In this document: piece after piece, positions 2,422-16,159 of the stretch
How the letters are laid out: the number at the start of each line of letters is the position of its first letter
Position numbering within the stretch: the stretch's first letter is position 1
DNA from: a virus
Taxonomy: Duplodnaviria; Heunggongvirae; Uroviricota; Caudoviricetes
Direction: 5' to 3' (one strand)
Virus record (IMG/VR): IMGVR_UViG_2690316131_000017
Length of the DNA stretch: 16,159 nucleotides
Program-made: the position numbers and the translations under genes
Notes under the pieces: generated by a model
Database searches by the model: none
Told to the model about the DNA's origin: nothing
What the model saw: the letters and a program-made list of their open reading frames with translations, nothing else

Positions 2422-4083
2422 TTACACCCCGCTAAATTCTTCCAGTTTCTGGCGGTGGCTGTCGCTTATATCAAAAGCAAAATCCTCATGCTCTGCCTGG
2501 AATGTACCAAACGCCATCAGCGCCGCCACGCTCGGGTCTATCTTGTTCGGTGATTTTTTCTTGTTCGGCTTGATATTGGCGTTCGCGTCACTCTGCATCA
2601 CGACGTTACTCATCGACCAGGACAACACCGGATCGCCACGATGCACAATCACCCTGCGGTTAACAAAAACTTCGAACGATTTCGCCGCCGGACTGAATCT
2701 GAGGTAGGTTTGCGGGAACGGCTCCACCTCAAAGCCTGCCCCCTGTAATTGCGTCCTGAGATGCGTGGCGTTCCACGTATCAAAGCCCACCAGCCTGATA
2801 TTAAATTTCTCCGCATCCTGCATGATGTCATCTCTGATCCGGTCGTAATCAATGCAGTCACCTGGCGTTGTGCGTATCCAGCCCGCTTTAGCCCACTGGC
2901 GATAGACAGCGCGGTTTTTATTGGCGGGGTTCTGTAGCTGGAACTCCGGCAGATAATGACGGGAAACCAGCATGATATTTTTACCGACCGGAAAGGCATA
3001 GCACACGCTGGAAATATCGCTGGTTGATGATAAGTCCAGCCCCGCGTAACACTCCTGCCCGTGTAAATCTTCCTCCGTGAACGTTCCGGCACACTCAGCC
3101 CATGCGCCGTTACCCATCCACGGGGTAGCCCCCTGGCACCAGATATTAAATCGCTTTGTCATCATCTCCACCCATTGCGACGGAATACCCCGCGCTTTCT
3201 GGATGGTTGAGGCCAGTTTTTCACGATCCACGGAAACATCGATGTTAGGGTTAGCCTTTATCCACATCGCCGGATCATCAACCTCGTTTTCGTCGTCCAG
3301 TTCGTAAATCAGTACAAAAATTGAATCGTTGACCTCTTCGCCGTCCAGGATCTGGCAGCAATAATCATAGTGCTGCTTACAGGCTGAAACGACGTTACTG
3401 CCCGATGTGGTAATGGCAAATAACAGCCCTTCGGGACGTGCGCCCATCCCCAGCTCAAGCGCGGAATAAACGCCGTTATCGGGGTGTAGGTGGTATTCGT
3501 CCACGATGGAAAGGCTTGGGTTTGTGCCCTCGATGGTTGCCGCTTTTGCTGCCAGCGGCTTTAACAGGCTGTTGCTTTTCGGGTGCATCACCTTGTGGGC
3601 CTGAATATTCACCCGCCTGCGTAACGGTCGGGATAAAAGGCACATCTGACGCGCATCATCAAAAACGATCCGCGCCTGGTCACGGCTCACCGCTGCGGTG
3701 TAAATATCCTGCTGCCCGTTCTCCATAATCAGAAACCAGTTAGCCAGAATCGCGGCGGTCGTGGATTTCGCATTTTTGCGCGGCACTTCGATAAAGGCGC
3801 TCGTGTATTTGCGCCGTCCGGTGGCCTTAACCTTAAAGCCGAGGATGCACGCAAAGGCGAACTGCTGCCACGGCTCCAGCTCAATGGGTCTGCCACGCAT
3901 CGGCCCTTTTACGTGCGGGCACACCCTGGAAAAGGCAATAAACCGCTCCACAACCTCACGATCGAACGTGTAAAGGGGGCTTTCAAGGTCCGAAAAGTAC
4001 CGTTTAACGGCCTGTTTCAGCCGTTTACAGGCCGGAATTTTGCCCGTTTTTACGTCTTCTGCGTACTTATTCCAGGCGGTCAA
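2422..4083 (-). CDS. terminase large subunit (HK97-type)
   Basis: 553 aa with an N-terminal ATPase P-loop-like segment (PRKNAKST) and a C-terminal nuclease-type region with acidic residues. The ORF-track start at 4083 is TTG with a GAGGA Shine-Dalgarno, overlapping the TerS 3' end by 17 nt. Confidence 0.88.
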   Translation of the reverse strand: MTAWNKYAEDVKTGKIPACKRLKQAVKRYFSDLESPLYTFDREVVERFIAFSRVCPHVKGPMRGRPIELEPWQQFAFACILGFKVKATGRRKYTSAFIEVPRKNAKSTTAAILANWFLIMENGQQDIYTAAVSRDQARIVFDDARQMCLLSRPLRRRVNIQAHKVMHPKSNSLLKPLAAKAATIEGTNPSLSIVDEYHLHPDNGVYSALELGMGARPEGLLFAITTSGSNVVSACKQHYDYCCQILDGEEVNDSIFVLIYELDDENEVDDPAMWIKANPNIDVSVDREKLASTIQKARGIPSQWVEMMTKRFNIWCQGATPWMGNGAWAECAGTFTEEDLHGQECYAGLDLSSTSDISSVCYAFPVGKNIMLVSRHYLPEFQLQNPANKNRAVYRQWAKAGWIRTTPGDCIDYDRIRDDIMQDAEKFNIRLVGFDTWNATHLRTQLQGAGFEVEPFPQTYLRFSPAAKSFEVFVNRRVIVHRGDPVLSWSMSNVVMQSDANANIKPNKKKSPNKIDPSVAALMAFGTFQAEHEDFAFDISDSHRQKLEEFSGV

Positions 4084-4423
4084 GCTCGTCCTCTTCTTCT
4101 GTTTCCGGTGGATTTTTACGGCGGCTTATCGGGTCAAAACCGAGCAAAGAGGCCATTTTTATCATCACTCTTTCAGCGTCGGATTTTGCGCTTAATGCGG
4201 GGTTTCTGCTCTCACCGCCCTGACTGTTAACAATGCTGAACCCGCGCGCCGCAAGGTCTGCAACGGCTTTCCGGTAAATGGAGTAGTTGACACAATACAG
4301 TTCCAGATTGCTCCAGTCGGCGGGGGTCAGGTCTCCCCGTTCCGCAAGCTGCCTAGATTTTTCCCGCCACTGCTTCACGGCGATATCATCCAGGTAGGCG
4401 GGGGCTTTCGGTGGTCTTGACAT
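4067..4423 (-). CDS. terminase small subunit, P27 family
   Basis: 118 aa; the pattern (LTPADWSNLELYCVNYSIYRKAVADL ... NPALSAKSDAERVMIKMASLLGFDPISRRK) is typical of P27-type TerS; acidic C-terminus. ATG at 4423. Confidence 0.85.
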   Translation of the reverse strand: MSRPPKAPAYLDDIAVKQWREKSRQLAERGDLTPADWSNLELYCVNYSIYRKAVADLAARGFSIVNSQGGESRNPALSAKSDAERVMIKMASLLGFDPISRRKNPPETEEEDELDRLE

Positions 4424-4546
4424 GCTTATTTTTTCGCCAGATTATTTTTCAAAAAATTCCCGTGCATAAAAATTTGAGGAGGCGTTCGGTGCCCGGCGGA
4501 GTCGGGTTTGTCCTGAAAACGCCCCCCACCCCGTCATACAGCCTCA
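4424..4546. other. candidate cos/packaging-site region upstream of TerS
   Basis: 123-bp non-coding gap between the HNH-side small ORF and TerS, containing a G/C-rich tract (aaaacgccccccaccccgtc). In HNH plus P27-TerS cos phages the cos site usually lies near terS. Position is inferred only. Confidence 0.3.
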
Positions 4547-4729
4547 TCAGCGATTGCGAAAACATTCCATAACCTCGCGGTCACGGTCGGTTAATCGCTT
4601 CGCTGTGATGCGTTCTGCGCGTCCTGACGCTTTATCTTTATGCCCTGTTTCCTGTGTCTTCCATGCGTCACGCTGCCTTATAAGTCCACGGATAAGGCGG
4701 TTTTGTTCCCGCTCATTCATCAGCGTCAT
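4547..4729 (-). CDS. small basic hypothetical protein (60 aa)
   Basis: ATG at 4727-4729 inside the longer track ORF 4547-4951, overlapping the HNH 3' end. Basic composition. Uncertain. Confidence 0.35.
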   Translation of the reverse strand: MTLMNEREQNRLIRGLIRQRDAWKTQETGHKDKASGRAERITAKRLTDRDREVMECFRNR

Positions 4730-5153
4730 ACATCCAGTTATTGCGGTTAGCGGCCCGTTCTTCCTCTGCACGAAATCCACCTGCGGCACGCTTGCTTTTT
4801 GTTGCCGGATCAAGCCATTTCGTTTTCTGGTTATGACACGCCTGGCACAATGGTTGATGGTTCCATTCGGGCCAGAAGAGAACATCATCACCGCCATTAA
4901 TCGGGATAATGTGATCCACCACCACGGCGGGCGTATATATCCCCTTCTCAAGGCATCGCACGCATAACGGGTTTTTACTCAGATACATGGCGCGGTATTT
5001 GTCCCACTGTCTGGAATATCCACGCGCGCGGCGGTGTCCTCGTCTGGCATCCTCTGCACGCCATGCCGCCCGCCTGTGCTCCTCACACTTGCCGGATTTA
5101 ACGCGCCTGTTACAGCCTGGTTCTGTGCATCGTCTTAATGGTTGCCACGGCAT
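4713..5153 (-). CDS. HNH endonuclease (terminase-associated)
   Basis: 146 aa with Cys-rich Zn-binding segments and an HNH core (DHIIPINGG ... NHQPLCQACHNQKT). ATG at 5153 overlaps the connector stop (ATGA). Confidence 0.85.
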   Translation of the reverse strand: MPWQPLRRCTEPGCNRRVKSGKCEEHRRAAWRAEDARRGHRRARGYSRQWDKYRAMYLSKNPLCVRCLEKGIYTPAVVVDHIIPINGGDDVLFWPEWNHQPLCQACHNQKTKWLDPATKSKRAAGGFRAEEERAANRNNWMYDADE

Positions 5154-5449
5154 CAGTACACCCCCACATCACGGTAAGCCGTCCAGAGTGCGCCAATCGT
5201 CATGGGTACGCGTGTTTTTGCGTTATCCGCGACAATCTGGCGATTCTCATACAGGTGAGCGATAAACATCATGCAGCCAATCTTTATGGCTGGCGTGAAC
5301 TCCAGCCCGTCATCAAAGCGCCTGCCTATGTGTATCTGGCACGCCTCAAGCGATGCGGCAATGTATCCGCTGATTAACTGGTCTTCCTCGTCTCCATCGA
5401 TACGGCAATGGAGTTTCACTTCTTCCAGGGTGATAAGTTCTTCTGTCAT
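5153..5449 (-). CDS. gp6-like head-tail connector protein
   Basis: 98 aa; N-terminal pattern (ITLEEVKLHCRIDGDEEDQLISGYIAASLEACQ) is typical of the gp6-like connector family. ATGA overlap with the upstream gene. Confidence 0.78.
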   Translation of the reverse strand: MTEELITLEEVKLHCRIDGDEEDQLISGYIAASLEACQIHIGRRFDDGLEFTPAIKIGCMMFIAHLYENRQIVADNAKTRVPMTIGALWTAYRDVGVY

Positions 5450-5784
5450 TTTTCCGCGCCCTCACGACAAAGAATTTCAAGGCGTGTCCTGGCGACATCC
5501 GGCAACGGCTGCCCGATGATATTCAGTACACGCCCCGCCAGCGGCCCCGTACTGACCTTTATCCGGCTGGTGGCGTTGATGTCCTTCCGGTACCGTATCC
5601 AGATCCTTACGGTACCAATCGCCAGCTCTGCGCCCGATGAAATGGCCTCCTTGCTGCTGATCATGTTCACGCTTGCCCAGAGTGTGTGACCGTCCTCCCA
5701 CGTTTCGAGTATTTCGCCCGTCATGGCTCTGGTCTGTTTCAGGGTCTGAATCGTTATCCTGTCACGCAGTCGCCCTATGTTCAT
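5446..5784 (-). CDS. phage head closure / head-tail adaptor protein
   Basis: Pattern RITIQ ... WASV ... IRYR ... ATSRI is typical of head-tail joining proteins. I prefer the ATG at 5784 (ATGA overlap with the portal stop) to the track start at 5826. Confidence 0.75.
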   Translation of the reverse strand: MNIGRLRDRITIQTLKQTRAMTGEILETWEDGHTLWASVNMISSKEAISSGAELAIGTVRIWIRYRKDINATSRIKVSTGPLAGRVLNIIGQPLPDVARTRLEILCREGAEK

Positions 5785-6992
5785 TCCGTTTTTTCTCCCT
5801 CGCTGATTTTTACTTCCTGTTTCCATGCCTGGCTGAACTCATCACCACCATCACGCGGTGACAGTCCTTCACGTTCGCGGGCTTCGTTCGGGCACATAAC
5901 GCCGGATTTGATGCCGCGCTCATAGGTGGCAAAGCGTTCGCCAGGTGTGGCCCGTAACAGGTCCGCGCTGTCAAACTCCACCTGATACCGGATACCAGGT
6001 ACAGGCGAGGCCACCAGCAGGGCGTTTTTTATCTGCTGCTCAAAGTTCGCCAGCCACGGGCGCATCGTCATGGTGAGAAATGCGCGGCTTGCCTCGCTGA
6101 AATTGCTGTAGGTGCTGTTGCTGTATTCCTGCAAAAAAATCGGCGAGACGTTGAACATTCGGGCGATGTCTTCAATGGTAAAGCGACGGGAGGCCAGCCA
6201 TTCAGCATCCTGATTACTCATGCCCAGCTGCTGATAGCTCATACCCCCTTCAAGGATGGGCGTTTTTCCGGCGTTTCTGGCCCCTTTGTAGCGTTCCAGT
6301 GCGGCTAATGCCTGTTTGCCCTTCACGCCGTCCAGCCATTCGCCTGACGTGATAACCCCTGCCGCCATCATGCCATCACGCATCACGCTCGCGCCGTGGC
6401 GTTGTTGGGCCAGCCCAAGCCCCAGCGATTCGCGGCAGATGGTTACAGGTGAGCGCCCCATAAAGCCGTCATCCGTGGAGTAACGAAGGTGAAGTACTTC
6501 CCACGGTAAATAGTTGTGGGTGTTTCCGGTGTAGGCGTCAGTGATGCAATAGCGCCAGTTGTGTTCTCCTGTCTGCTCCACGTTCACCGACTGCGGCGGG
6601 TAAGGATGTAAAGCCGCCGGAAAACCATCACGCCCCCACTGAATAACCGCATAAGCATTACCGTTTAACAGGCAGTGGCGGATCATCATTCGCTTAAACT
6701 AGTAGGGGGTTTGCCATGCGTTCGGGCGCTCGTTGAAGATGTGATCGACCGGATGAGAATCAAGCCACTCGCGGGCCTCCTTCCCCTTCTCATTGCGTAC
6801 CAGGTACAGGTAGCATGGCATAGTAGCCACCGCCTCAGAGATGACCGTAACGGCGTTCATGACGGCAGGCAGTGATTCCGCTGTCCCCGATGATACGTAC
6901 TCACCCGCCCCCGTGTTCGATGTGCCGGCCAGCGCCATAAATTCATCAAGCGTCATGCTGCGCTGCTCTTTTTTTCTTCTGAAAGGCCACAT
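5781..6992 (-). pseudogene. HK97-family portal protein interrupted by one in-frame TAG (codon 98, plus coordinates 6699-6701)
   Basis: Track ORFs 6699-6992 (97 aa, portal N-terminus AVMNAVTVISEAVATMPCYLY) and 5781-6689 (302 aa, portal core with FTIEDIARMFNVSP) are in the same frame, separated only by TAG and three sense codons. Combined length ~403 codons is portal-sized. Confidence 0.8.
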
Positions 6993-6993
6993 A

Positions 6994-7566
6994 TCACACC
7001 CCCGCTAAATCCGCCCACCAGCGGCGATTATCCGCACGCGGCATTTTTTCGGGGTGCTGCTCATACAGGGAACGGCGGGCCAGCTCCACGCCGGAATCGG
7101 GGTAAGCCGGTACCGATGTAACGGTAATTTCGTACAGTTCCGCCACCAGCACGGTGCGCACGCATGGATCTGTTGTGGTATCCCATACATCCTTACGGGA
7201 GCGAAAGCCAAAGCTCATGCCGGATATATCACCACGTTTAACCAGTTCGATAACGTCGCGCCCTGTACTGGTATCCGGTGGGGTCAGTTCAAAGCGTAAC
7301 CCTGTTTCATCCTCTTCCAGTTTCAGCGTGCCGGAACGGGTGCGCCCCAGTAACATACTGTGGTCATGCTCATACAGGCCGCGAACGTCATTACCCGCCG
7401 CAAGCCATTCAGTAAACGCCCCCCGCTGGAATTTTTCGTAAAACTCACCCCATAACAGTTCTGAAAGCTTATCCCAGCGAACAACGTAGCCTGTAAGCGT
7501 GTTGCTGCCGCTGGTGGTGATTTCCGATGACCGGATTTCCATACTCTTCATAATTTTTTCACCCAT
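6994..7566 (-). CDS. HK97-family prohead protease (S78-type)
   Basis: 190 aa; the pattern (GYVVRWDKLSE ... GAFTEWL ... HDHSMLLGRT ... GMSFGF ... SVPAYPDSGVE) matches the prohead protease family. Stop is 1 nt before the portal ATG. Confidence 0.85.
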   Translation of the reverse strand: MGEKIMKSMEIRSSEITTSGSNTLTGYVVRWDKLSELLWGEFYEKFQRGAFTEWLAAGNDVRGLYEHDHSMLLGRTRSGTLKLEEDETGLRFELTPPDTSTGRDVIELVKRGDISGMSFGFRSRKDVWDTTTDPCVRTVLVAELYEITVTSVPAYPDSGVELARRSLYEQHPEKMPRADNRRWWADLAGV

Positions 7567-7575
7567 AAAACACTA

Positions 7576-7595
7576 AAGGGGCTTTTAAGCCCCTT
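7576..7595 (-). terminator. stem-loop between the capsid and protease genes (AAGGGGCTT..AAGCCCCTT), candidate partial terminator
   Basis: 9-bp inverted repeat in the 39-bp capsid-protease gap, followed on the minus-strand RNA by a U-rich stretch (UAGUGUUUU). Confidence 0.4.
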
Positions 7596-7605
7596 CTGTA
7601 TGCTG

Positions 7606-8763
7606 TTAATCGTCGTCCTGTGGCAGTTCCAGAATCTTGATCGCGTTCGAATCCACCACGCCACCGCCTAAATATTTCTGCGTGAAAATTTTGATGAAGC
7701 CCGGCTCTGTGAGGTTGTCCGGTCTGGTGCGAACACCTGTTTCGTGATCAACAATGTAGTAACCGCGTTTGAAGTCACCCAGGGCAATAACGTTATCAGG
7801 CATAAACTCCAGATATTCGACCGGAAGGCCCAGCAACGTATCAGGATCACCCGCCTGTAAACGGTCACGCCAGATGTAATCACCGTTCGCGTTCTTCACC
7901 TTCTGGAGTTTTGCCGCCGTCGTGGAGTTAACCACCCAGACCGCGTTTTTGCGGTATTTTTTACGTAATGCAAATTTCAGGTCGATCAGCGGGTCCGCAG
8001 ATGTCCACGCCAGAGATTCGGAAGGTTTAATTACCTGCAACGTACCAAAATCACGCTCTTTGTCGTTCTTCTCTGCACGGGGTACGGATAAAAAGCCTTT
8101 TGCTTTTTTGTCACCGTCGCCCACAACCAGATCGCTTTCTTCGGTTTCCGTGAAGGTGTCGCCAATCTCGCCCGTCAGCCATGAAAGGATGTCCACATCG
8201 GAAAAATCCACGATTTCCTGTGTGGTGCGCGGGTACGCATAGACCGGATACAGCTTAATGCTCACCTCGTTAATCTGCGGGGTGCTGGTCTGTTCGCGTG
8301 CCTTACCCTCTTCACCGTGGTTAACGGTCGCACCGCCAGCGGAAACAAGCTGCTTAAACTCGTTGCTGCTGATTTTCTTCACGGTACAGATGCGGCGCAT
8401 GGTGGATTCATCCGCCAGCATTCGCATGATTTCGGTGTTCAGTTCGGGGATAACGGTATAACCACCATCAGCGGGAACGCCTGTACTTAATGCGCGGGTT
8501 TCACCCGTCAGAATGTAGTTTCGTAGTTCTGCGGGGTCAGTGGTCTGACTGCTTTTACCTGGCTTGCTGCGCTCTTCGTCTGCAATGGCTTCAAGGCGGG
8601 AAATGTCTTTATCGAGGGATTCAGCTTTAGCGCGTAATTCGTCAAATTTTGCGCCCTCAGCATCGTTAAGACTGCGGTTTTCTTTTTCAGCGTTCTCCAG
8701 CATGTCGCGCATCTGATTTTTAATGGCGGTTTTCTGCTGGCGTAATTCGATTATTCTCGGCAT
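7606..8763 (-). CDS. major capsid protein, HK97 fold, with N-terminal coiled-coil delta (scaffold) domain
   Basis: N-terminal ~100 aa is heptad-rich and charged, followed by an HK97-like capsid body. No separate scaffold gene. First ATG at 8763; the track ORF extends to a TTG at 8808. Confidence 0.85.
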   Translation of the reverse strand: MPRIIELRQQKTAIKNQMRDMLENAEKENRSLNDAEGAKFDELRAKAESLDKDISRLEAIADEERSKPGKSSQTTDPAELRNYILTGETRALSTGVPADGGYTVIPELNTEIMRMLADESTMRRICTVKKISSNEFKQLVSAGGATVNHGEEGKAREQTSTPQINEVSIKLYPVYAYPRTTQEIVDFSDVDILSWLTGEIGDTFTETEESDLVVGDGDKKAKGFLSVPRAEKNDKERDFGTLQVIKPSESLAWTSADPLIDLKFALRKKYRKNAVWVVNSTTAAKLQKVKNANGDYIWRDRLQAGDPDTLLGLPVEYLEFMPDNVIALGDFKRGYYIVDHETGVRTRPDNLTEPGFIKIFTQKYLGGGVVDSNAIKILELPQDDD

Positions 8764-8978
8764 AAAAAAAAGTCCTGGGGTTAAGTAAGGAACTCCAGGA
8801 CGCGGCAAACACTCAACCGTTTTTCATAAGGAAATCAGCAATCGCACCGATCGTTTTCCCGCCTGGTAATGAATATTGGCGAGCACATTAACAGGCGGGA
8901 AAGTGGCCCCAGCGTCCTGGCACCACGGGCGAGAATAATCATGATTCAGTTCGGGTAAAATATGCCGATCCGCTCAGT

Positions 8979-9008
8979 GAACAACGTGGAACAACCACGA
9001 ACAAATAA
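8979..9008 (+). promoter_or_regulatory. three 10-bp-phased AACAA boxes overlapping the -35 of the packaging-operon promoter
   Basis: GAACAACGTG GAACAACCAC GAACAAATAA. On the minus strand the proximal box (TTGTTC) sits 16 bp upstream of TATTTT (8957-8962), about 190 bp upstream of the capsid ATG. Confidence 0.5.
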
Positions 9009-9018
9009 TTTACAAAAA

Positions 9019-9046
9019 ATAACAAAAAGCCGGATTGCTCCGGCTG
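9019..9046 (-). terminator. intrinsic terminator (stem AGCCGGA/TCCGGCT, loop TTGC, U-tract on minus strand)
   Basis: Perfect 7-bp stem followed on the minus-strand RNA by UUUUUGUUAUUUUUU; 19 bp downstream of the stop of gene 9065-9289. Confidence 0.75.
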
Positions 9047-9064
9047 TATGTGCTGTATGGGTGC

Positions 9065-9289
9065 TCAGTCTCTGATCCCTTTCAGAAATTCTATCAATGC
9101 ATCTGTCTGTTCAGGATTTACTGCCAGCATTTCACCGGATAGCGCGCAACGAACAAAACCATGATGATCCTTTTCAATCAGCGCCCCCGTTTCCAGAAAT
9201 GCGCGGTAATCAGTGATATTCATCGTCTCCATGTTGTCAGCATGGTATTTATCACGCTGTTTAAGTATCTCATCAAATTTCATCGGCAT
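9065..9289 (-). CDS. hypothetical protein (74 aa) in a terminator-flanked cassette
   Basis: ATG at 9289 with a GAGGAA Shine-Dalgarno 8 nt upstream (the track ORF runs further up to 9367). No family recognised. Confidence 0.5.
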   Translation of the reverse strand: MPMKFDEILKQRDKYHADNMETMNITDYRAFLETGALIEKDHHGFVRCALSGEMLAVNPEQTDALIEFLKGIRD

Positions 9290-9373
9290 TGCGTTTTCCT
9301 CTGTTGTGTCTGTTTGTTTCAGATAGTAACTATGCCGGACCGTGACGAAAAGCCAGTAGTGCTCCATACCGTT

Positions 9374-9399
9374 TCAAATGACGCAAAAAAAGCCGGATT
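9374..9399 (-). terminator. intrinsic terminator, near-identical copy of the one at 9019-9046
   Basis: Same 23-bp sequence aaaaagccggattgctccggctg; on the minus strand the stem-loop is followed by a U7 tract. Lies 32 bp downstream of ORF 9431-9592. Confidence 0.75.
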
Positions 9400-9430
9400 G
9401 CTCCGGCTGCGTGGTGTGGTTCTGATATTC

Positions 9431-9592
9431 CTACTCTGCTAATTTGCTCAGCCCCATGTCTGCGTAAGTGCGATTTACTGCATTTCTCAGGTCTGCGTAG
9501 TTCTCCGTTGGCGGCTCCGGTGTGCCCTTGCTGCTCTGTTTTACCTGCGGGTCGTCCACCAGCCGCCCGTAAGCGGCTATCTGTGCCGTCAT
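9431..9592 (-). CDS. hypothetical small protein (53 aa)
   Basis: Not in the ORF track (under 60 aa). ATG at 9590-9592 overlaps the stop of the upstream gene (ATGA); hand translation gives MTAQIAAYGRLVDDPQVKQSSKGTPEPPTENYADLRNAVNRTYADMGLSKLAE; TAG at 9431-9433. Confidence 0.35.
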   Translation of the reverse strand: MTAQIAAYGRLVDDPQVKQSSKGTPEPPTENYADLRNAVNRTYADMGLSKLAE

Positions 9593-9903
9593 AATTCCAC
9601 CTCTCCGGTTTTAACGTTGATGGTTGTTACCTGTTCCGCTTCGGCAATCTCCCGTTCTGTCAGCGTGGCAAAGTTTGCCGCCGCCGTGGTCATGAATGCG
9701 CTTATCAGGTCGGGATGTTCCTTCGCGTATCCTTCCCGCGTGTGGCGGTCTATCGTTCTGATTGCCACCTTTAAGGTGTGCTCAGTCATGTCTAACGCTT
9801 TATATTTTGGCTCTGTTCTGTCTCTGCGAATTTTGGTCATTTGTCGCCCCTGATTCATGTTTTCGGCTGGCATGTTTGTTAAGTGATTTTGATGTATGCG
9901 CAT
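9589..9903 (-). CDS. hypothetical protein (104 aa; alternative start at 9840 gives 83 aa)
   Basis: ATG at 9903 is preceded by a strong Shine-Dalgarno (GAGGGGGGTGA); an internal ATG at 9840 also has an AGGGG Shine-Dalgarno. First gene downstream of the ori. No family recognised. Confidence 0.5.
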   Translation of the reverse strand: MRIHQNHLTNMPAENMNQGRQMTKIRRDRTEPKYKALDMTEHTLKVAIRTIDRHTREGYAKEHPDLISAFMTTAAANFATLTEREIAEAEQVTTINVKTGEVEL

Positions 9904-10188: not shown

Positions 10189-11943
10189 TTATAAAAACGC
10201 GTCACAATCATCCGTTGTAATTGCGTTGGTCTGCGTTACTCCCTTAACTTTCCGCGTAATATATTCATGTCCGTAAACTTTTGCCGCTGGCTTCATGGCC
10301 TTGCTGAACTCAGCCACGTTTAGCGGTTTGCTCCTGCCTGCGTATGCCATAAACGCCAGATAGACGCGGTAAAGGCTGTTCCTGGTCGTGTACTTCACTG
10401 AATCGCCACCGCCACCCATCATCAGGCCGCGCGCTTCCTCCAGAAAATTCAGGAACTGGCAAAACTCAATAACCGGATCCGTCTGTTGCTTTATTGCCAG
10501 TGCTTCATCACCGTCGCGCTGTTCCAGGAGTAAAGCCCGTGCCTTTTCAGGGTCGGCAAAGTTCGCCAGTAATCGGCGGATAATCACAGGGATTTCAGCC
10601 GCAATCTTTTCCGGTAGCTCCCTGTCTTTTTCGGCCTCACTGACGATATTGTCGAAACGGAAAATCACGCGACGACGTGCCACACCTCCGGCCCGTTCGG
10701 TGAATATCATCGGGTTGTTGTTGGTCGCCAGCACCACCGCCCTGATTACCGCCGTGAAACGCTTTTCATATTTCGGGTTAATTTCCACGGGGTCGCCGCC
10801 CGTGATTTTCTTGATGCCCGTTCCTTCGCCTGTATATTTCGGCTGGTCTGCCAGGACGATAAGACGACTCCCGACAACCTGCGCACGTCCACCAGCATCA
10901 TCAAGCGATGTCATCTCAGCGCTTACCGTGTTCTGTTTCCCTGCCAGAAGGCTGGCTATGTGTGTGAATGTACTTTTACCGCTCCCGCCGTCTCCGGTGG
11001 CCTCAATAAACATCTGCCAGTCGTACCGGTTCGCCATAATCATGTACAGCGCGGCACATATACGCATCATCTTGCGCGGGTCTTTTCCGGCTGCGTGCTC
11101 AAGCCATTTATGAAAGTTTGGCGCGTTGTCGCGGATATTCTCCCCTGGTGCTGGTGGCGTGTACTCAATGCCGTTATGCGTGGTGATCCAGTTCTCCGGC
11201 GTGTGCGGGGAAAATTCCCCCGTTTTCAGGTCAAGCACACCATTGGCGAACGGCAGCAAATCGCCGGACGGTTCGCCCATTGGTTCGGCAATAACTTTTA
11301 ACGCTTCCACGGTGTTATTGATTACGCGCTTGCTGAAAGTGGCCCTGTGCTCTGAATAGATCGCCACCATTTCGCGGCTCAGTGCCATTGTGCTGACCGG
11401 ACACCATACCCCGCCGCGCCATACGTGAACGATTTCACTTTCAGGATGTACGCAAACGCCATCAAAGCGCCCGGCAAGCAGCTGCGCGCGCTCACTGTCC
11501 GCCATCTGCGAAAGTTGCGCCTTTTGCTTTACCGGAAGCTCAATGACCAGACCATCAGAAAGATTCTGGCGCTCACGGGCCAGATATTCGCGCCAGTTCT
11601 CCACCTCCTGAACGTGCATTCCCTCAGGGTAAAAATTTGCATCCTGTACACCTGCCGCCGCCAGCTTCTGACCAATCGCCTTTATCATTACAGGCTCAAG
11701 ATGTCCGGCCCTGAATATGCGTACTGATTTTCGGCCTTCCGGCACAATTTGCAGCTTATCCAGTTCGGATAACTGCTGCTCCCCAAGCCACACAGGAGGC
11801 TCATTATCTCCGGCCATACGCGCGTCATGTTCCTGCCATTGTTTTGCGTGTGACCAGGCATCACTACCCGCAAAAATAATGACTTCTGTTTCTTTGTGTT
11901 TTATGCCGCGTGACTGCTGTTTTACGTTCGGTGCCAGTTTCAT
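10189..11943 (-). CDS. P4-family primase/helicase (replication initiator)
   Basis: 584 aa with a Walker A P-loop (GDGGSGKST) in a D5/P4-type helicase region preceded by a primase-like N-terminal domain. ATG at 11943 overlaps the upstream stop (ATGA). Adjacent to the iteron ori. Confidence 0.88.
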   Translation of the reverse strand: MKLAPNVKQQSRGIKHKETEVIIFAGSDAWSHAKQWQEHDARMAGDNEPPVWLGEQQLSELDKLQIVPEGRKSVRIFRAGHLEPVMIKAIGQKLAAAGVQDANFYPEGMHVQEVENWREYLARERQNLSDGLVIELPVKQKAQLSQMADSERAQLLAGRFDGVCVHPESEIVHVWRGGVWCPVSTMALSREMVAIYSEHRATFSKRVINNTVEALKVIAEPMGEPSGDLLPFANGVLDLKTGEFSPHTPENWITTHNGIEYTPPAPGENIRDNAPNFHKWLEHAAGKDPRKMMRICAALYMIMANRYDWQMFIEATGDGGSGKSTFTHIASLLAGKQNTVSAEMTSLDDAGGRAQVVGSRLIVLADQPKYTGEGTGIKKITGGDPVEINPKYEKRFTAVIRAVVLATNNNPMIFTERAGGVARRRVIFRFDNIVSEAEKDRELPEKIAAEIPVIIRRLLANFADPEKARALLLEQRDGDEALAIKQQTDPVIEFCQFLNFLEEARGLMMGGGGDSVKYTTRNSLYRVYLAFMAYAGRSKPLNVAEFSKAMKPAAKVYGHEYITRKVKGVTQTNAITTDDCDAFL

Positions 11944-12936: not shown

Positions 12937-13159
12937 GGTGTACCCCTCCGCATTTTTTTTCGTTAGAAATAAGCGTTCTTCTTTCCTGTTCATCGCTCAG
13001 GAATACGCAGACCTCACCGCTAAGGCGTTTAAGTAAGCCGATGATTGCCCCTGATTCGCTGTCGGTCATCATGCCAGGGTAATCCTCTGCCAGTGCGCAA
13101 ATGACTTCGATTTGGTGGGCGCGTTCTGCTGCCTGTTGTAGTGTGATTTCCTGGCTCAT
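12926..13159 (-). CDS. hypothetical protein (77 aa from internal ATG; track ORF to 13225)
   Basis: ATG (MSQEIT...) overlaps the stop of the upstream gene (ATGA). Coordinates follow the ORF-track frame. Confidence 0.45.
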   Translation of the reverse strand: MSQEITLQQAAERAHQIEVICALAEDYPGMMTDSESGAIIGLLKRLSGEVCVFLSDEQERRTLISNEKKCGGVHHVQ

Positions 13160-13356
13160 AAGCCTACCCCCTGACGAATACGGGCGGCGAATACCATCAC
13201 GCAGCCAGCCGGAGATTGCTGGCATGCTTCCTGTTCGCTGGTGGCCTCAATGGTAATCACGCGCGGTTGTGCCGTGCTCAGGGCGATAAAACGCCAGATG
13301 TATTTATTCAGGTTGTGCGAGTCCCGCCCTTGCGGGTGTGTGGTATGATTTCTCAT
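13156..13356 (-). CDS. hypothetical protein (66 aa), first gene of the leftward early operon
   Basis: C-terminal 66 codons of the 387-aa track ORF. ATG at 13354-13356 with a GAGGT Shine-Dalgarno, directly downstream of the operator-bearing promoter. The rest of the long ORF is judged spurious. Confidence 0.4.
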   Translation of the reverse strand: MRNHTTHPQGRDSHNLNKYIWRFIALSTAQPRVITIEATSEQEACQQSPAGCVMVFAARIRQGVGL

Positions 13357-13453
13357 AGCTACCTCGATACTTTCGCTATCGTTGGTGGTTAGACGCCCTG
13401 CATGTGTTGCGAGCACTGCGGGGCGTTGCTTAATTTGAGTGACAAAACTCAAA

Positions 13454-13540
13454 CTGTGCGCACAGATTAAAATCATGTGTGCGCACATGTCAATACTTAA
13501 CATCTCATTTTTTTTGCTGTATTGTGTGCGCCCATAAAGT
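13454..13540. promoter_or_regulatory. divergent promoter/operator switch with TGTGCGCACA palindromes
   Basis: Perfect 12-bp palindrome CTGTGCGCACAG (13454-13465), 10-bp palindrome TGTGCGCACA (13478-13487) and a half-site TGTGCGC (about 13525-13531). Leftward promoter read on the minus strand: TTGACA (13488-13493), 16-bp spacer, TTTAAT (13466-13471). Candidate rightward promoter TTGCTG / TAAAGT. Confidence 0.55.
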
Positions 13541-13561
13541 CCATTTAAGTGAGGTGCATCA

Positions 13562-13759
13562 ATGTCTAGCGGTAACACAAACAACAAATCAGCAAAGAAA
13601 AATATTCGATTCCCGCATGAGCTTATAGATGGGATTGATGCCAGCGTTGAACAAGAAAAATTAACTAATCCTAGTGCTAATTTTTCCGCATGGGTCTTAG
13701 ATGCCTGTGGACGCAAATTAAAATATGAACAGCGCCGGAAGGCCAAAGAATCAGAATAA
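13562..13759 (+). CDS. small DNA-binding-like protein (65 aa), candidate island repressor; possibly YlcI/YnfO-like
   Basis: ATG at 13562 with a GTGAGGTG Shine-Dalgarno. The segment KKNIRFPHELIDGIDASVEQE ... NFSAWVLDACGRKL has a strand-helix-helix pattern suggestive of a ribbon-helix-helix fold. The YlcI/YnfO (DUF3950) resemblance is from memory and unverified. Confidence 0.55.
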   Translation: MSSGNTNNKSAKKNIRFPHELIDGIDASVEQEKLTNPSANFSAWVLDACGRKLKYEQRRKAKESE

Positions 13760-13816
13760 TCACTATCAGCGCCGTGGTGTGAGGAACTACGGCGCATTTC
13801 TTTACAGGAGTAGACA

Positions 13817-14002
13817 ATGAACAACGAAGAATTACGGGAAATCGCATTATCCATACTTGAAAGACAGGTAGAAAAAAAATTAAGAGAAATGGATGAAATG
13901 CCTGACCATGAACAGGAAGCAAGGCCAAAAAGATTTGCCCTTGAGGATTTTCTTAAAAATTGCCCAAGAAAGATGAGATCGTGGCGTTGTTGTCCGCCCT
14001 GA
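13817..14002 (+). CDS. hypothetical protein (61 aa)
   Basis: ATG at 13817 with a GGAG Shine-Dalgarno; co-directional with the upstream gene and followed by a strong terminator. Confidence 0.5.
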   Translation: MNNEELREIALSILERQVEKKLREMDEMPDHEQEARPKRFALEDFLKNCPRKMRSWRCCPP

Positions 14003-14079
14003 TGACAGATTTGCCAACCAGCCAAAAATGTGGCATCGTTGTCGATACATAGTGTAATCAACATGTATATCATATTTTT

Positions 14080-14106
14080 GCGACCATCATAGGTCGCATT
14101 TTTTTT
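14080..14106 (+). terminator. intrinsic terminator (GCGACC-atcata-GGTCGC followed by T8)
   Basis: Perfect 6-bp GC-rich stem followed by an 8-T run; about 80 bp downstream of the plus-strand gene pair. Confidence 0.7.
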
Positions 14107-14376
14107 GCCTGTAATCCGGCAATTGTGGCGCTTCTTCACACAGTTGATATAATTCCAATGCTCATATTTATTTTTTGTGCAGCAGGTTAATCGTTCACAA
14201 AGGCGCTCAGGTAACTGGGCGCTTTTTGTTATGCCTGAAAAACCCCAATTTTGTTGTTTTTCAGTTTCACCAGGGCGAACGAATCCCCGCCTACGTTCTG
14301 GCGTATATTCAATCTTCATGGTTATAGCTCTGTGTTCAGATGATTGATGTGTGGCGGCTGCGTGCCGCCAGCGTGA

Positions 14377-14929: not shown

Positions 14930-16159
14930 TTATTTTCTTCTGGCTACTGGTAGCGTGGTTACGTTTTCATGTGTTCCCGCCAGTATCCCTAACCGCTCCG
15001 TCCACATATCCAGCGCATTGCGTTTAGCATCCAGATAACGGGAATGATTATAAACTCGCTGCATTCCTGGCATCTGGTGGCCTGTAAGCTGCTCCACGAC
15101 GTGAGAATCCACGCCTAAATCGTTCAGCATCGTTGTAAAGGTGCGCCGGATGTCATGTAGTGACCAGTGAGGGTGATTTAGCCTCCTGTGCGCTAATCTG
15201 CCGTACTGCGACACGCTTGTTTCCTGTTTCACTTCCCCCAGCAATAAACCCGTGTGCCTGTTCTGCTCCACCAGCTGCGTGACGAACGGCAGTATTGCTT
15301 CCGGTATGGGCCGGAATATTGCCACCTTCGTTTTGCTGTGTTCTTTCGGCACGGTCCAGAGCATTTCGGTAAAATCCCACTCGCTGATCTCCGATAACCT
15401 CAGTTCTACCGTCCGGCATCCGAACACAATCAGGAGGCGGATTAGCGCGATGTAGTAGGGGGAGAATATTTTTTTGTCCAGTGCCTGCAATAATTCGCCA
15501 AGTTCTTTGTTGCTTAAGACACGCTCGCTTATATCCGGTTTTTTCCCAACGTCCGCCACACTCATATCATCAAGAACGTTGCTGATTGCATAGCGCCGCT
15601 TCCGGCAGAACTTAAGCGCCTGCTTGCATGTCTGTAGCAGGAACCCGGCGGAAACAGGGGCTTGCTTTGCCACCCGATCAAAACAGGCCAGCCAGTGCCG
15701 TAGCTCGCATTTATCCAGCGGCATAGGGCCAATGTGCTGTATTACGTGATTATTTAGCCGCTTTTTCAGTGGGTCATAATCCACACGGTTTTCCTTTGCG
15801 TACGACTCAAGCCAGTAGGTGAGCGTATCACCAACCGTTACCGGCTTTAACGCTTCCTGTACGGTGTAATTCATCTCATGACGTGGATTTTTCCCCTCAG
15901 CCAGCCATGCGCGACACTGGGCGGCTTTTTCCCTGGCTGATTTCAGACTCAGATCAGGATAATTTCCCAGCTTAATGCGTTCCGGTGGTGCCCCCCTTCC
16001 CGTTCCGGCCCTGTAAGTGAAATACCAGGTTAAAAGGCCGCTGGTTGAATGCCTGACGCTCAGATTTCCACCGTCATTAAGAAAGGCTGTTTTTTGGGCG
16101 GGTGTGCCGTTGATTTTCCTTAGCAGTGTATCGCTCAGTTTGTTAAGTGCTCTGCTCAT
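14930..16159 (-). CDS. tyrosine integrase with N-terminal arm-binding (DUF4102-like) domain
   Basis: 409 aa. N-terminal arm-binding-type pattern (LSDTLLRKI ... LNDGGNLSV ... WYFTYR ... IKLGNYPDLSLKSAREKA) and a C-terminal catalytic region with R..HxxR..Y-type residues (HDIRRTF ... HSRY). The ATG is the last 3 nt of the window, so the upstream region and att site are not visible. Confidence 0.9.
   Translation of the reverse strand: MSRALNKLSDTLLRKINGTPAQKTAFLNDGGNLSVRHSTSGLLTWYFTYRAGTGRGAPPERIKLGNYPDLSLKSAREKAAQCRAWLAEGKNPRHEMNYTVQEALKPVTVGDTLTYWLESYAKENRVDYDPLKKRLNNHVIQHIGPMPLDKCELRHWLACFDRVAKQAPVSAGFLLQTCKQALKFCRKRRYAISNVLDDMSVADVGKKPDISERVLSNKELGELLQALDKKIFSPYYIALIRLLIVFGCRTVELRLSEISEWDFTEMLWTVPKEHSKTKVAIFRPIPEAILPFVTQLVEQNRHTGLLLGEVKQETSVSQYGRLAHRRLNHPHWSLHDIRRTFTTMLNDLGVDSHVVEQLTGHQMPGMQRVYNHSRYLDAKRNALDMWTERLGILAGTHENVTTLPVARRK

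Follow-up and report, generated by a model that had tools for sequence, protein, structure and literature searches.

The portal gene of a capsid-forming PICI (cf-PICI) of E. coli is interrupted by a single in-frame amber codon in the 16,159-nt stretch of DNA analyzed here (the window). We conclude that the island has very probably lost its portal through a C-to-T change that is real and vertically inherited in one lineage, leaving the island unable to transmit itself. The cf-PICIs build their own capsids and borrow only phage tails, and a natural portal knock-out indicates a lineage whose island can probably no longer leave the chromosome. The initial annotation had proposed that the amber codon splits the portal gene of an otherwise complete satellite, possibly as a recent inactivating mutation, and the comparisons described below support this proposal. 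The event is an ordinary recent pseudogenization in the known cf-PICI family, not a new mechanism, and represents an early stage of mobile-element decay with nothing unusual about it.

The island and its interrupted portal gene

The window element is a cf-PICI of 14.6 kb, integrated between roxA and phoQ of E. coli (Table 1), a site that holds related islands in many E. coli genomes. Its size is given by the spacing (14,639 bp in contig L010) of two att-like direct repeats of 75 nt, which are 77% identical and share an identical core of about 21 nt; the partner of the repeat on the phoQ side lies 22–96 nt beyond the integrase start, just outside the window. Proteobacterial cf-PICIs are known to carry capsid, protease, portal, and head connector genes, followed by hnh-terS-terL, together with int and alpA, within 10–15 kb (10.1101/2022.09.08.507074). 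The window element falls in this size range and has the direct att repeats. It possesses an integrase, an AlpA regulator, and a replication module, and its packaging genes follow the order capsid, protease, portal, connectors, HNH, TerS, TerL. As judged from family matches, no tail or lysis gene is present among all the genes called in the 14.6 kb. The size class, the int/alpA end, the primase, the packaging order, and the lack of tail and lysis genes are shared with the cf-PICI prototype EcCIEDL933 (Alqurainy et al., 10.1101/2022.09.08.507074), from which the window differs by the internal amber codon and an L86F substitution in the portal. At the sequence level, the portal, with its stop at codon 98, is the one packaging gene predicted to be non-functional, and the window element thus departs from the cf-PICI family in one defining feature, an intact packaging module for small capsids that carry the island and use helper tails. 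None of the other genes differs in length from its counterpart in intact relatives, which bears out the earlier view that the remaining head genes are intact.

Table 1. Coordinates of the features discussed in the text (window positions).
Feature	Position	Strand	Basis
phoQ, chromosomal flank	1–1461	plus	annotation
att-like direct repeat, phoQ side	1542–1616	none	repeat comparison in L010 (702–776, 15341–15415)
Large terminase TerL, 553 aa, intact	2422–4083	minus	Pfam
Small terminase TerS (Terminase_4, P27 family), 118 aa, intact	4067–4423	minus	annotated copies
HNH endonuclease, 146 aa, intact	4713–5153	minus	Pfam
gp6-like head-tail connector, 98 aa, intact	5153–5449	minus	Pfam, annotated copies
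Head closure/head completion protein, 112 aa, intact	5446–5784	minus	Pfam, annotated copies
Portal pseudogene, HK97 family PF04860, 403 codons including internal stop	5781–6992	minus	Pfam, HK97 8cez match
Downstream fragment ORF, 302 aa from ATG 6689 or 301 aa from ATG 6686	5781–6689	minus	ORF listing
N-terminal fragment ORF, 97 aa from M1 or 85 aa from M13	6699–6992	minus	ORF listing
Amber codon TAG, portal codon 98	6699–6701	minus	sequence and translation
Portal codon 86, TTC (Phe); CTC (Leu) in relatives	6735–6737	minus	relatives and homologue alignment
Prohead protease (Peptidase_S78), 190 aa, intact	6994–7566	minus	Pfam, annotated copies
Major capsid protein (Phage_capsid), 385 aa, intact	7606–8763	minus	Pfam, annotated copies
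D5-type primase (D5_N/DUF5906), replication module, 584 aa, intact	10189–11943	minus	Pfam
AlpA-family regulator (Phage_AlpA, PF05930), 62 aa	14377–14565	minus	gene calls in L010
Tyrosine integrase (Phage_integrase/Arm-DNA-bind_3), 409 aa, intact	14930–16159	minus	Pfam

On the minus strand, the ATG at 6992 opens the portal frame, which reads ...GCA TGG CAA ACC CCC TAC TAG TTT AAG CGA ATG ATG ATC... around the lesion. The TAG is preceded by 97 sense codons and followed, in the same frame, by 305 more before the TGA at 5781–5783. The sequence and its translation agree here with the initial annotation, which had placed an in-frame TAG at codon 98 (plus 6699–6701) with about 305 codons beyond it; its reading of codon 94 as CAG has to be corrected to CAA. 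The portal gene overlaps the end of the protease gene at its start (TGATATG) and, at its stop, the beginning of the head-closure gene (ATGA).

Both fragment ORFs are located in one and the same frame. When codon 98 is read as Gln, the 403-residue protein matches Pfam Phage_portal from residue 42 to residue 376 with 301.6 bits, above the gathering cut-off of 39.1, over model positions 1–321 of 321 and across the stop site. The domain match crosses the stop, and the two ORFs are therefore not a chance juxtaposition. The protein repaired in this way also matches the solved HK97 portal (8cez/8fql, E 4.9e-30), and the gene aligns without gaps to annotated 403-aa portal genes at 97–99.5% nucleotide identity. 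Compared with the HK97-family portals (PF04860; 8cez/8fql of HK97, 9lbn, and 6tba of RcGTA), the repaired window portal covers the full model, but instead of an uninterrupted ORF of about 400 aa its frame is broken at codon 98.

Origin and distribution of the amber allele

The ancestral codon was sought by the homologue alignment that the initial annotation had suggested, with CAG, TAC, and TGG as its candidates. In an alignment of the 120 best cluster representatives (59–99% identity), all 119 homologues that cover position 98 have Gln there. The codon is CAG in five related loci (L001–L004 and L015). The L001 portal, an intact annotated protein of 403 aa, is 99.5% identical to that of the window, and the L004 portal gene differs at 3 of 1212 nt. 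The portal of an O157:H7 cf-PICI shows 97.3% nucleotide identity and five residue differences, two of which are the Q98 stop and L86F. The inferred ancestral protein (P0121), which has L86 and Q98 and is otherwise identical, is present in 29 public contigs. Judging from these relatives, the TAG is derived from the first of the three candidates, CAG (Gln), by a single C-to-T transition at window position 6701 on the coding strand. Since Glu is aligned to Gln98 in the HK97 and 9lbn portals, Gln98 is invariant only within the cf-PICI-type clade.

The L86F substitution is also due to a C-to-T change on the coding strand, at window position 6737, 36 nt upstream of the amber change. Leu86 is found in 119 of 119 homologues. 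The stop and F86 are the only portal residues of the window that occur in no homologue, in a protein in which about 27% of the columns are invariant. Over window positions 3405–9560 (6156 bp, nearly the whole packaging module), only positions 6701 and 6737 differ from both L001 and L004, and a comparison with four relatives over 4212 bp again leaves these two as the only private changes. If two changes are independent and uniformly placed, the chance that they fall this close together is about 1%. Deamination hotspots at Dcm sites (CCWGG) were ruled out, the ancestral contexts being TACCAGT and ATCCTCA.

That a second invariant residue has been replaced is consistent with a portal released from selection. 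An intermediate with F86 and Q98 was not found in a collection of 15 billion proteins. Fragments with L86 that end exactly at Y97 do occur, namely P0136 in 6 Logan contigs and P0150 (labeled "partial") in 2 NCBI contigs. They may stem from an intermediate allele that has only the amber mutation, or from contigs that break at a heterogeneous site. These fragments hint that the amber mutation came first and that L86F may have followed under relaxed constraint.

Other lesions were encountered near this part of the gene. P0149 has a –1 frameshift in the ACCCCCT (C5) run, close to the amber site (codons 95–103), in 21 contigs, and P0148 has a 14-nt deletion after Q98 in 25 contigs; neither occurs in complete RefSeq genomes. 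The P0149 frameshift may be a homopolymer sequencing error. Such cases do not allow a mutational hotspot near codon 98 to be claimed, since the clustering itself picks out fragments of similar length. The portal P0117, from a related element, lacks its N-terminus only because the contig ends there.

We searched the public records for the allele itself. An 81-nt query across the site gave 264 hits in complete RefSeq E. coli genomes, none closer than 2 mismatches. The two mismatches of the best hits are precisely the two T's private to the window, and all 264 complete E. coli genomes with this portal type lack both T's. The exact 40-mer spanning the stop gave no match in the GTDB representative genomes, IMG/VR, or the JGI metagenomes. 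Exact look-ups of the 97-aa and 302-aa products gave no match either, since the genes called in public records begin at M13 and at the second ATG. Carriers were found by look-up of the window's primase and of the 85-aa N-terminal fragment (M13–Y97).

The amber allele occurs in at least 10 independent contigs of public assemblies (NCBI, Logan, and ENA), 10 being counted with the 85-aa product. L010 (GCA_001284925.1) is 100% identical to the entire window. L007 (GCA_049873545.1), L009 (GCA_012791145.1), L011 (Logan ERR137821), and L012 (SRR29313759) are 100% identical over 7–12 kb, and the amber codon is likewise present in L008 (GCA_048834105.1), with 2 differences from the window, and in L013 (ERR14760780), with 1. 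A 507-nt ENA metagenome contig, L014 (ERZ27287797), is 100% identical to window positions 6685–7191, TAG included; L014 lacks the complete 40-nt test pattern only because the pattern runs past the end of the contig. The chromosomal flanks are also identical between carriers, and this, together with the identical sequence, indicates one clonal lineage. These comparisons show that the amber codon is a genuine mutation, fixed in a single clonal host lineage; it is not an error, nor is it a variant that spreads. The full length of the other genes and the identity of the copies between isolates point to a recent event.

In public records the amber allele is already present, as a pseudogene or as split ORFs. 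PGAP-annotated copies have no protein between the protease and head-closure genes, a gap that fits a pseudogene call. Other pipelines emit 85-aa and 301-aa "putative head portal" products, the 301-aa gene being called in L010–L012. For annotation, the element should be scored as a cf-PICI with a portal pseudogene, and not as one with two small portal genes or as an intact mobile satellite.

Two observations concern the carrier genomes. The contigs of several drafts of the carrier lineage break at the same places (L011 and L012 at about window position 9638, L008 and L009 at 11965) or nearby (L005 at 12178). This pattern suggests further copies of parts of the replication module in these genomes, for example in a second PICI. 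No such breaks interrupt the packaging module in the carrier drafts. In addition, a gene for an NleB/SseK-type type III effector is located near the insertion site, about 8 kb beyond the integrase (60–1040 in L004 and L005), and hints at an EPEC/STEC-like host background. L005 probably belongs to the carrier lineage; L004 is its relative.

Alternative readings of the lesion

Several other explanations of the interrupted frame were considered. The initial annotation had raised a sequencing or assembly error, in which case the true codon would be CAG. Such an error would explain why the T is absent from every complete RefSeq E. coli genome and why the 40-mer is missing in the GTDB representative genomes, IMG/VR, and JGI metagenomes, but the T occurs together with F86 in at least 10 contigs of different projects, years, and assemblers. 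This recurrence in independent assemblies refutes the error option, which we regard as having practically no chance of being correct. It is just as hard to credit that the region contains two genuine genes, a conserved 97-aa gene and a portal starting at ATG 6689 or 6686, even though some public gene callers do emit 85-aa and 301-aa products. The Pfam portal domain spans the stop, full-length homologues are all single proteins of about 400–410 aa, the AlphaFold model places the stop inside its best-predicted part, at the start of helix 96–110, and no usable Shine-Dalgarno sequence precedes the downstream ATG. The scenario that the initial annotation had named as fatal to its proposal, a true start at the downstream ATG with a separate 97-aa gene upstream, is thus ruled out by the continuous homologues and by the domain across the stop. 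A different possibility is that the knock-out was selected, the host gaining from an immobilized island that keeps its regulatory or accessory genes, and that the clustered hits reflect selection or a single clustered mutational event. The sole two private changes in 6156 bp are indeed both located in the portal gene, 36 nt apart and at invariant residues. Nevertheless, two mutations are too few for any selection test, no benefit is known, and the occurrence of P0136, the L86 fragment ending at Y97, in other contigs suggests two separate events. We consider this explanation unlikely.

The remaining alternative is that the amber codon is read through, by a supE/supF-type suppressor of the host or a helper prophage or by near-cognate tRNA-Gln, so that the portal is functional and the element mobile. 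Amber mutants in phage morphogenesis genes, conditionally viable in supE hosts, are a classical case of CAG-to-TAG changes. The window allele shares with them the base change, the expected phenotype, and the prospect that a Gln suppressor would restore the wild-type residue, but it is natural in origin and is maintained in isolates that are not known to have a suppressor. As the codon was originally CAG, insertion of Gln by a suppressor would bring back the original residue, and the single change would be exactly reversed by a Gln-inserting suppressor or a near-cognate tRNA-Gln. The rest of the packaging module is intact, and the residues whose insertion at UAG has been reported are Q, Y, and W (PMC4333366). 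Against read-through, the stop is not conserved among homologues, as would be expected of a programmed event: it is present in 0 of 119 cluster representatives, which all have Gln, and in 0 of 264 complete genomes. The context is not leaky either, the +4 base being U, the context in which both read-through and suppression are lowest in E. coli (PMC5289835); RF1 termination should therefore be efficient. No dedicated suppressor is encoded in the window, which contains no tRNA gene. The invariant L86 is also substituted in the amber allele, and the occurrence of all copies at one chromosomal site, between identical flanks, suggests vertical inheritance rather than spread. Taken together, a functional portal through read-through is very unlikely, and still less probable is that portal synthesis and mobility are conditional on a Gln-inserting suppressor tRNA from the host or from a co-resident or helper phage; if this were true, suppressor dependence would add a further layer of helper dependence for the satellite. 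In E. coli, near-cognate tRNAs read through UAG at a low level and insert Gln, besides other residues (PMC4333366), and a trace of wild-type-like portal, still carrying F86, is conceivable on this basis.

Expected consequences and other features of the island

Loss of the portal by termination at the amber codon remains our preferred reading, and its likely consequences can be outlined. We propose that RF1 terminates at UAG-U and releases a 97-residue fragment, which would be the only product expected upon termination. In an AlphaFold monomer model (mean pLDDT 57.6, and 70–86 for residues 50–170; used only for the secondary structure near the lesion), the 97-aa product comprises only a helix at 42–56, a β-hairpin at 60–76, and a helix at 81–87. 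The stop falls where helix 96–110 begins, and the fragment lacks the remainder of the wing sheet and every subsequent helix. No good Shine-Dalgarno sequence precedes the ATG at 6689 or 6686, and re-initiation 9–12 nt after the stop would yield a product that lacks 60 residues of the Pfam domain. Because the head-closure gene is translationally coupled to the portal gene, both it and the genes that follow may also be less strongly expressed after premature termination.

The dodecameric portal vertex would not be formed, and with it the packaging vertex and the tail-attachment site would be missing. The island may still be induced and replicate, while packaging into its own capsid and attachment of helper tails would be lost. 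Point mutants of EcCIEDL933 in each gene of the packaging module replicate normally but lose transfer, which is restored by complementation (10.1101/2022.09.08.507074). The window allele resembles these laboratory mutants, and the same phenotype, replication without transfer, would be expected for the window island. As a portal-null cf-PICI, it offers a natural counterpart of laboratory portal mutants for experimental use. A second, diverged cf-PICI in the same cell could supply the portal in trans. Some residual mobility is possible as well, given that 12 portal copies per capsid suffice and that low read-through may insert Gln.

Several minor features of the island were noted outside the portal gene. 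A 387-aa ORF (13156–14319, minus strand) lies just downstream of alpA, and only its last ~90 residues match a known family, PHROG 6196, a transcriptional repressor (E 6.5e-55). It has no Pfam or PADLOC hit, and PADLOC revealed no defense genes among the unannotated ORFs. Identical DNA is annotated elsewhere with a 115-aa gene plus small genes on the opposite strand (DUF3950) at 13156–14319, and the 387-aa ORF may be over-extended or fused. Two identical terminator-like hairpins of 23 nt (CAGCCGGAGCAATCCGGCTTTTT), at 9387–9409 and 9024–9046 on the minus strand and 363 nt apart, bracket the small ORFs upstream of the capsid gene. A motif of ~35 nt containing TTGTTCCACGTTGT occurs in three copies, at 8980–9014, at 1585–1619, and at 699–733 of L010, the last just outside the window near the att site on the integrase side. 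It adjoins both att repeats, and the copy at 8980–9014 is located about 220 nt upstream of the capsid gene. This motif may be a candidate binding site for a regulatory or recombination protein.
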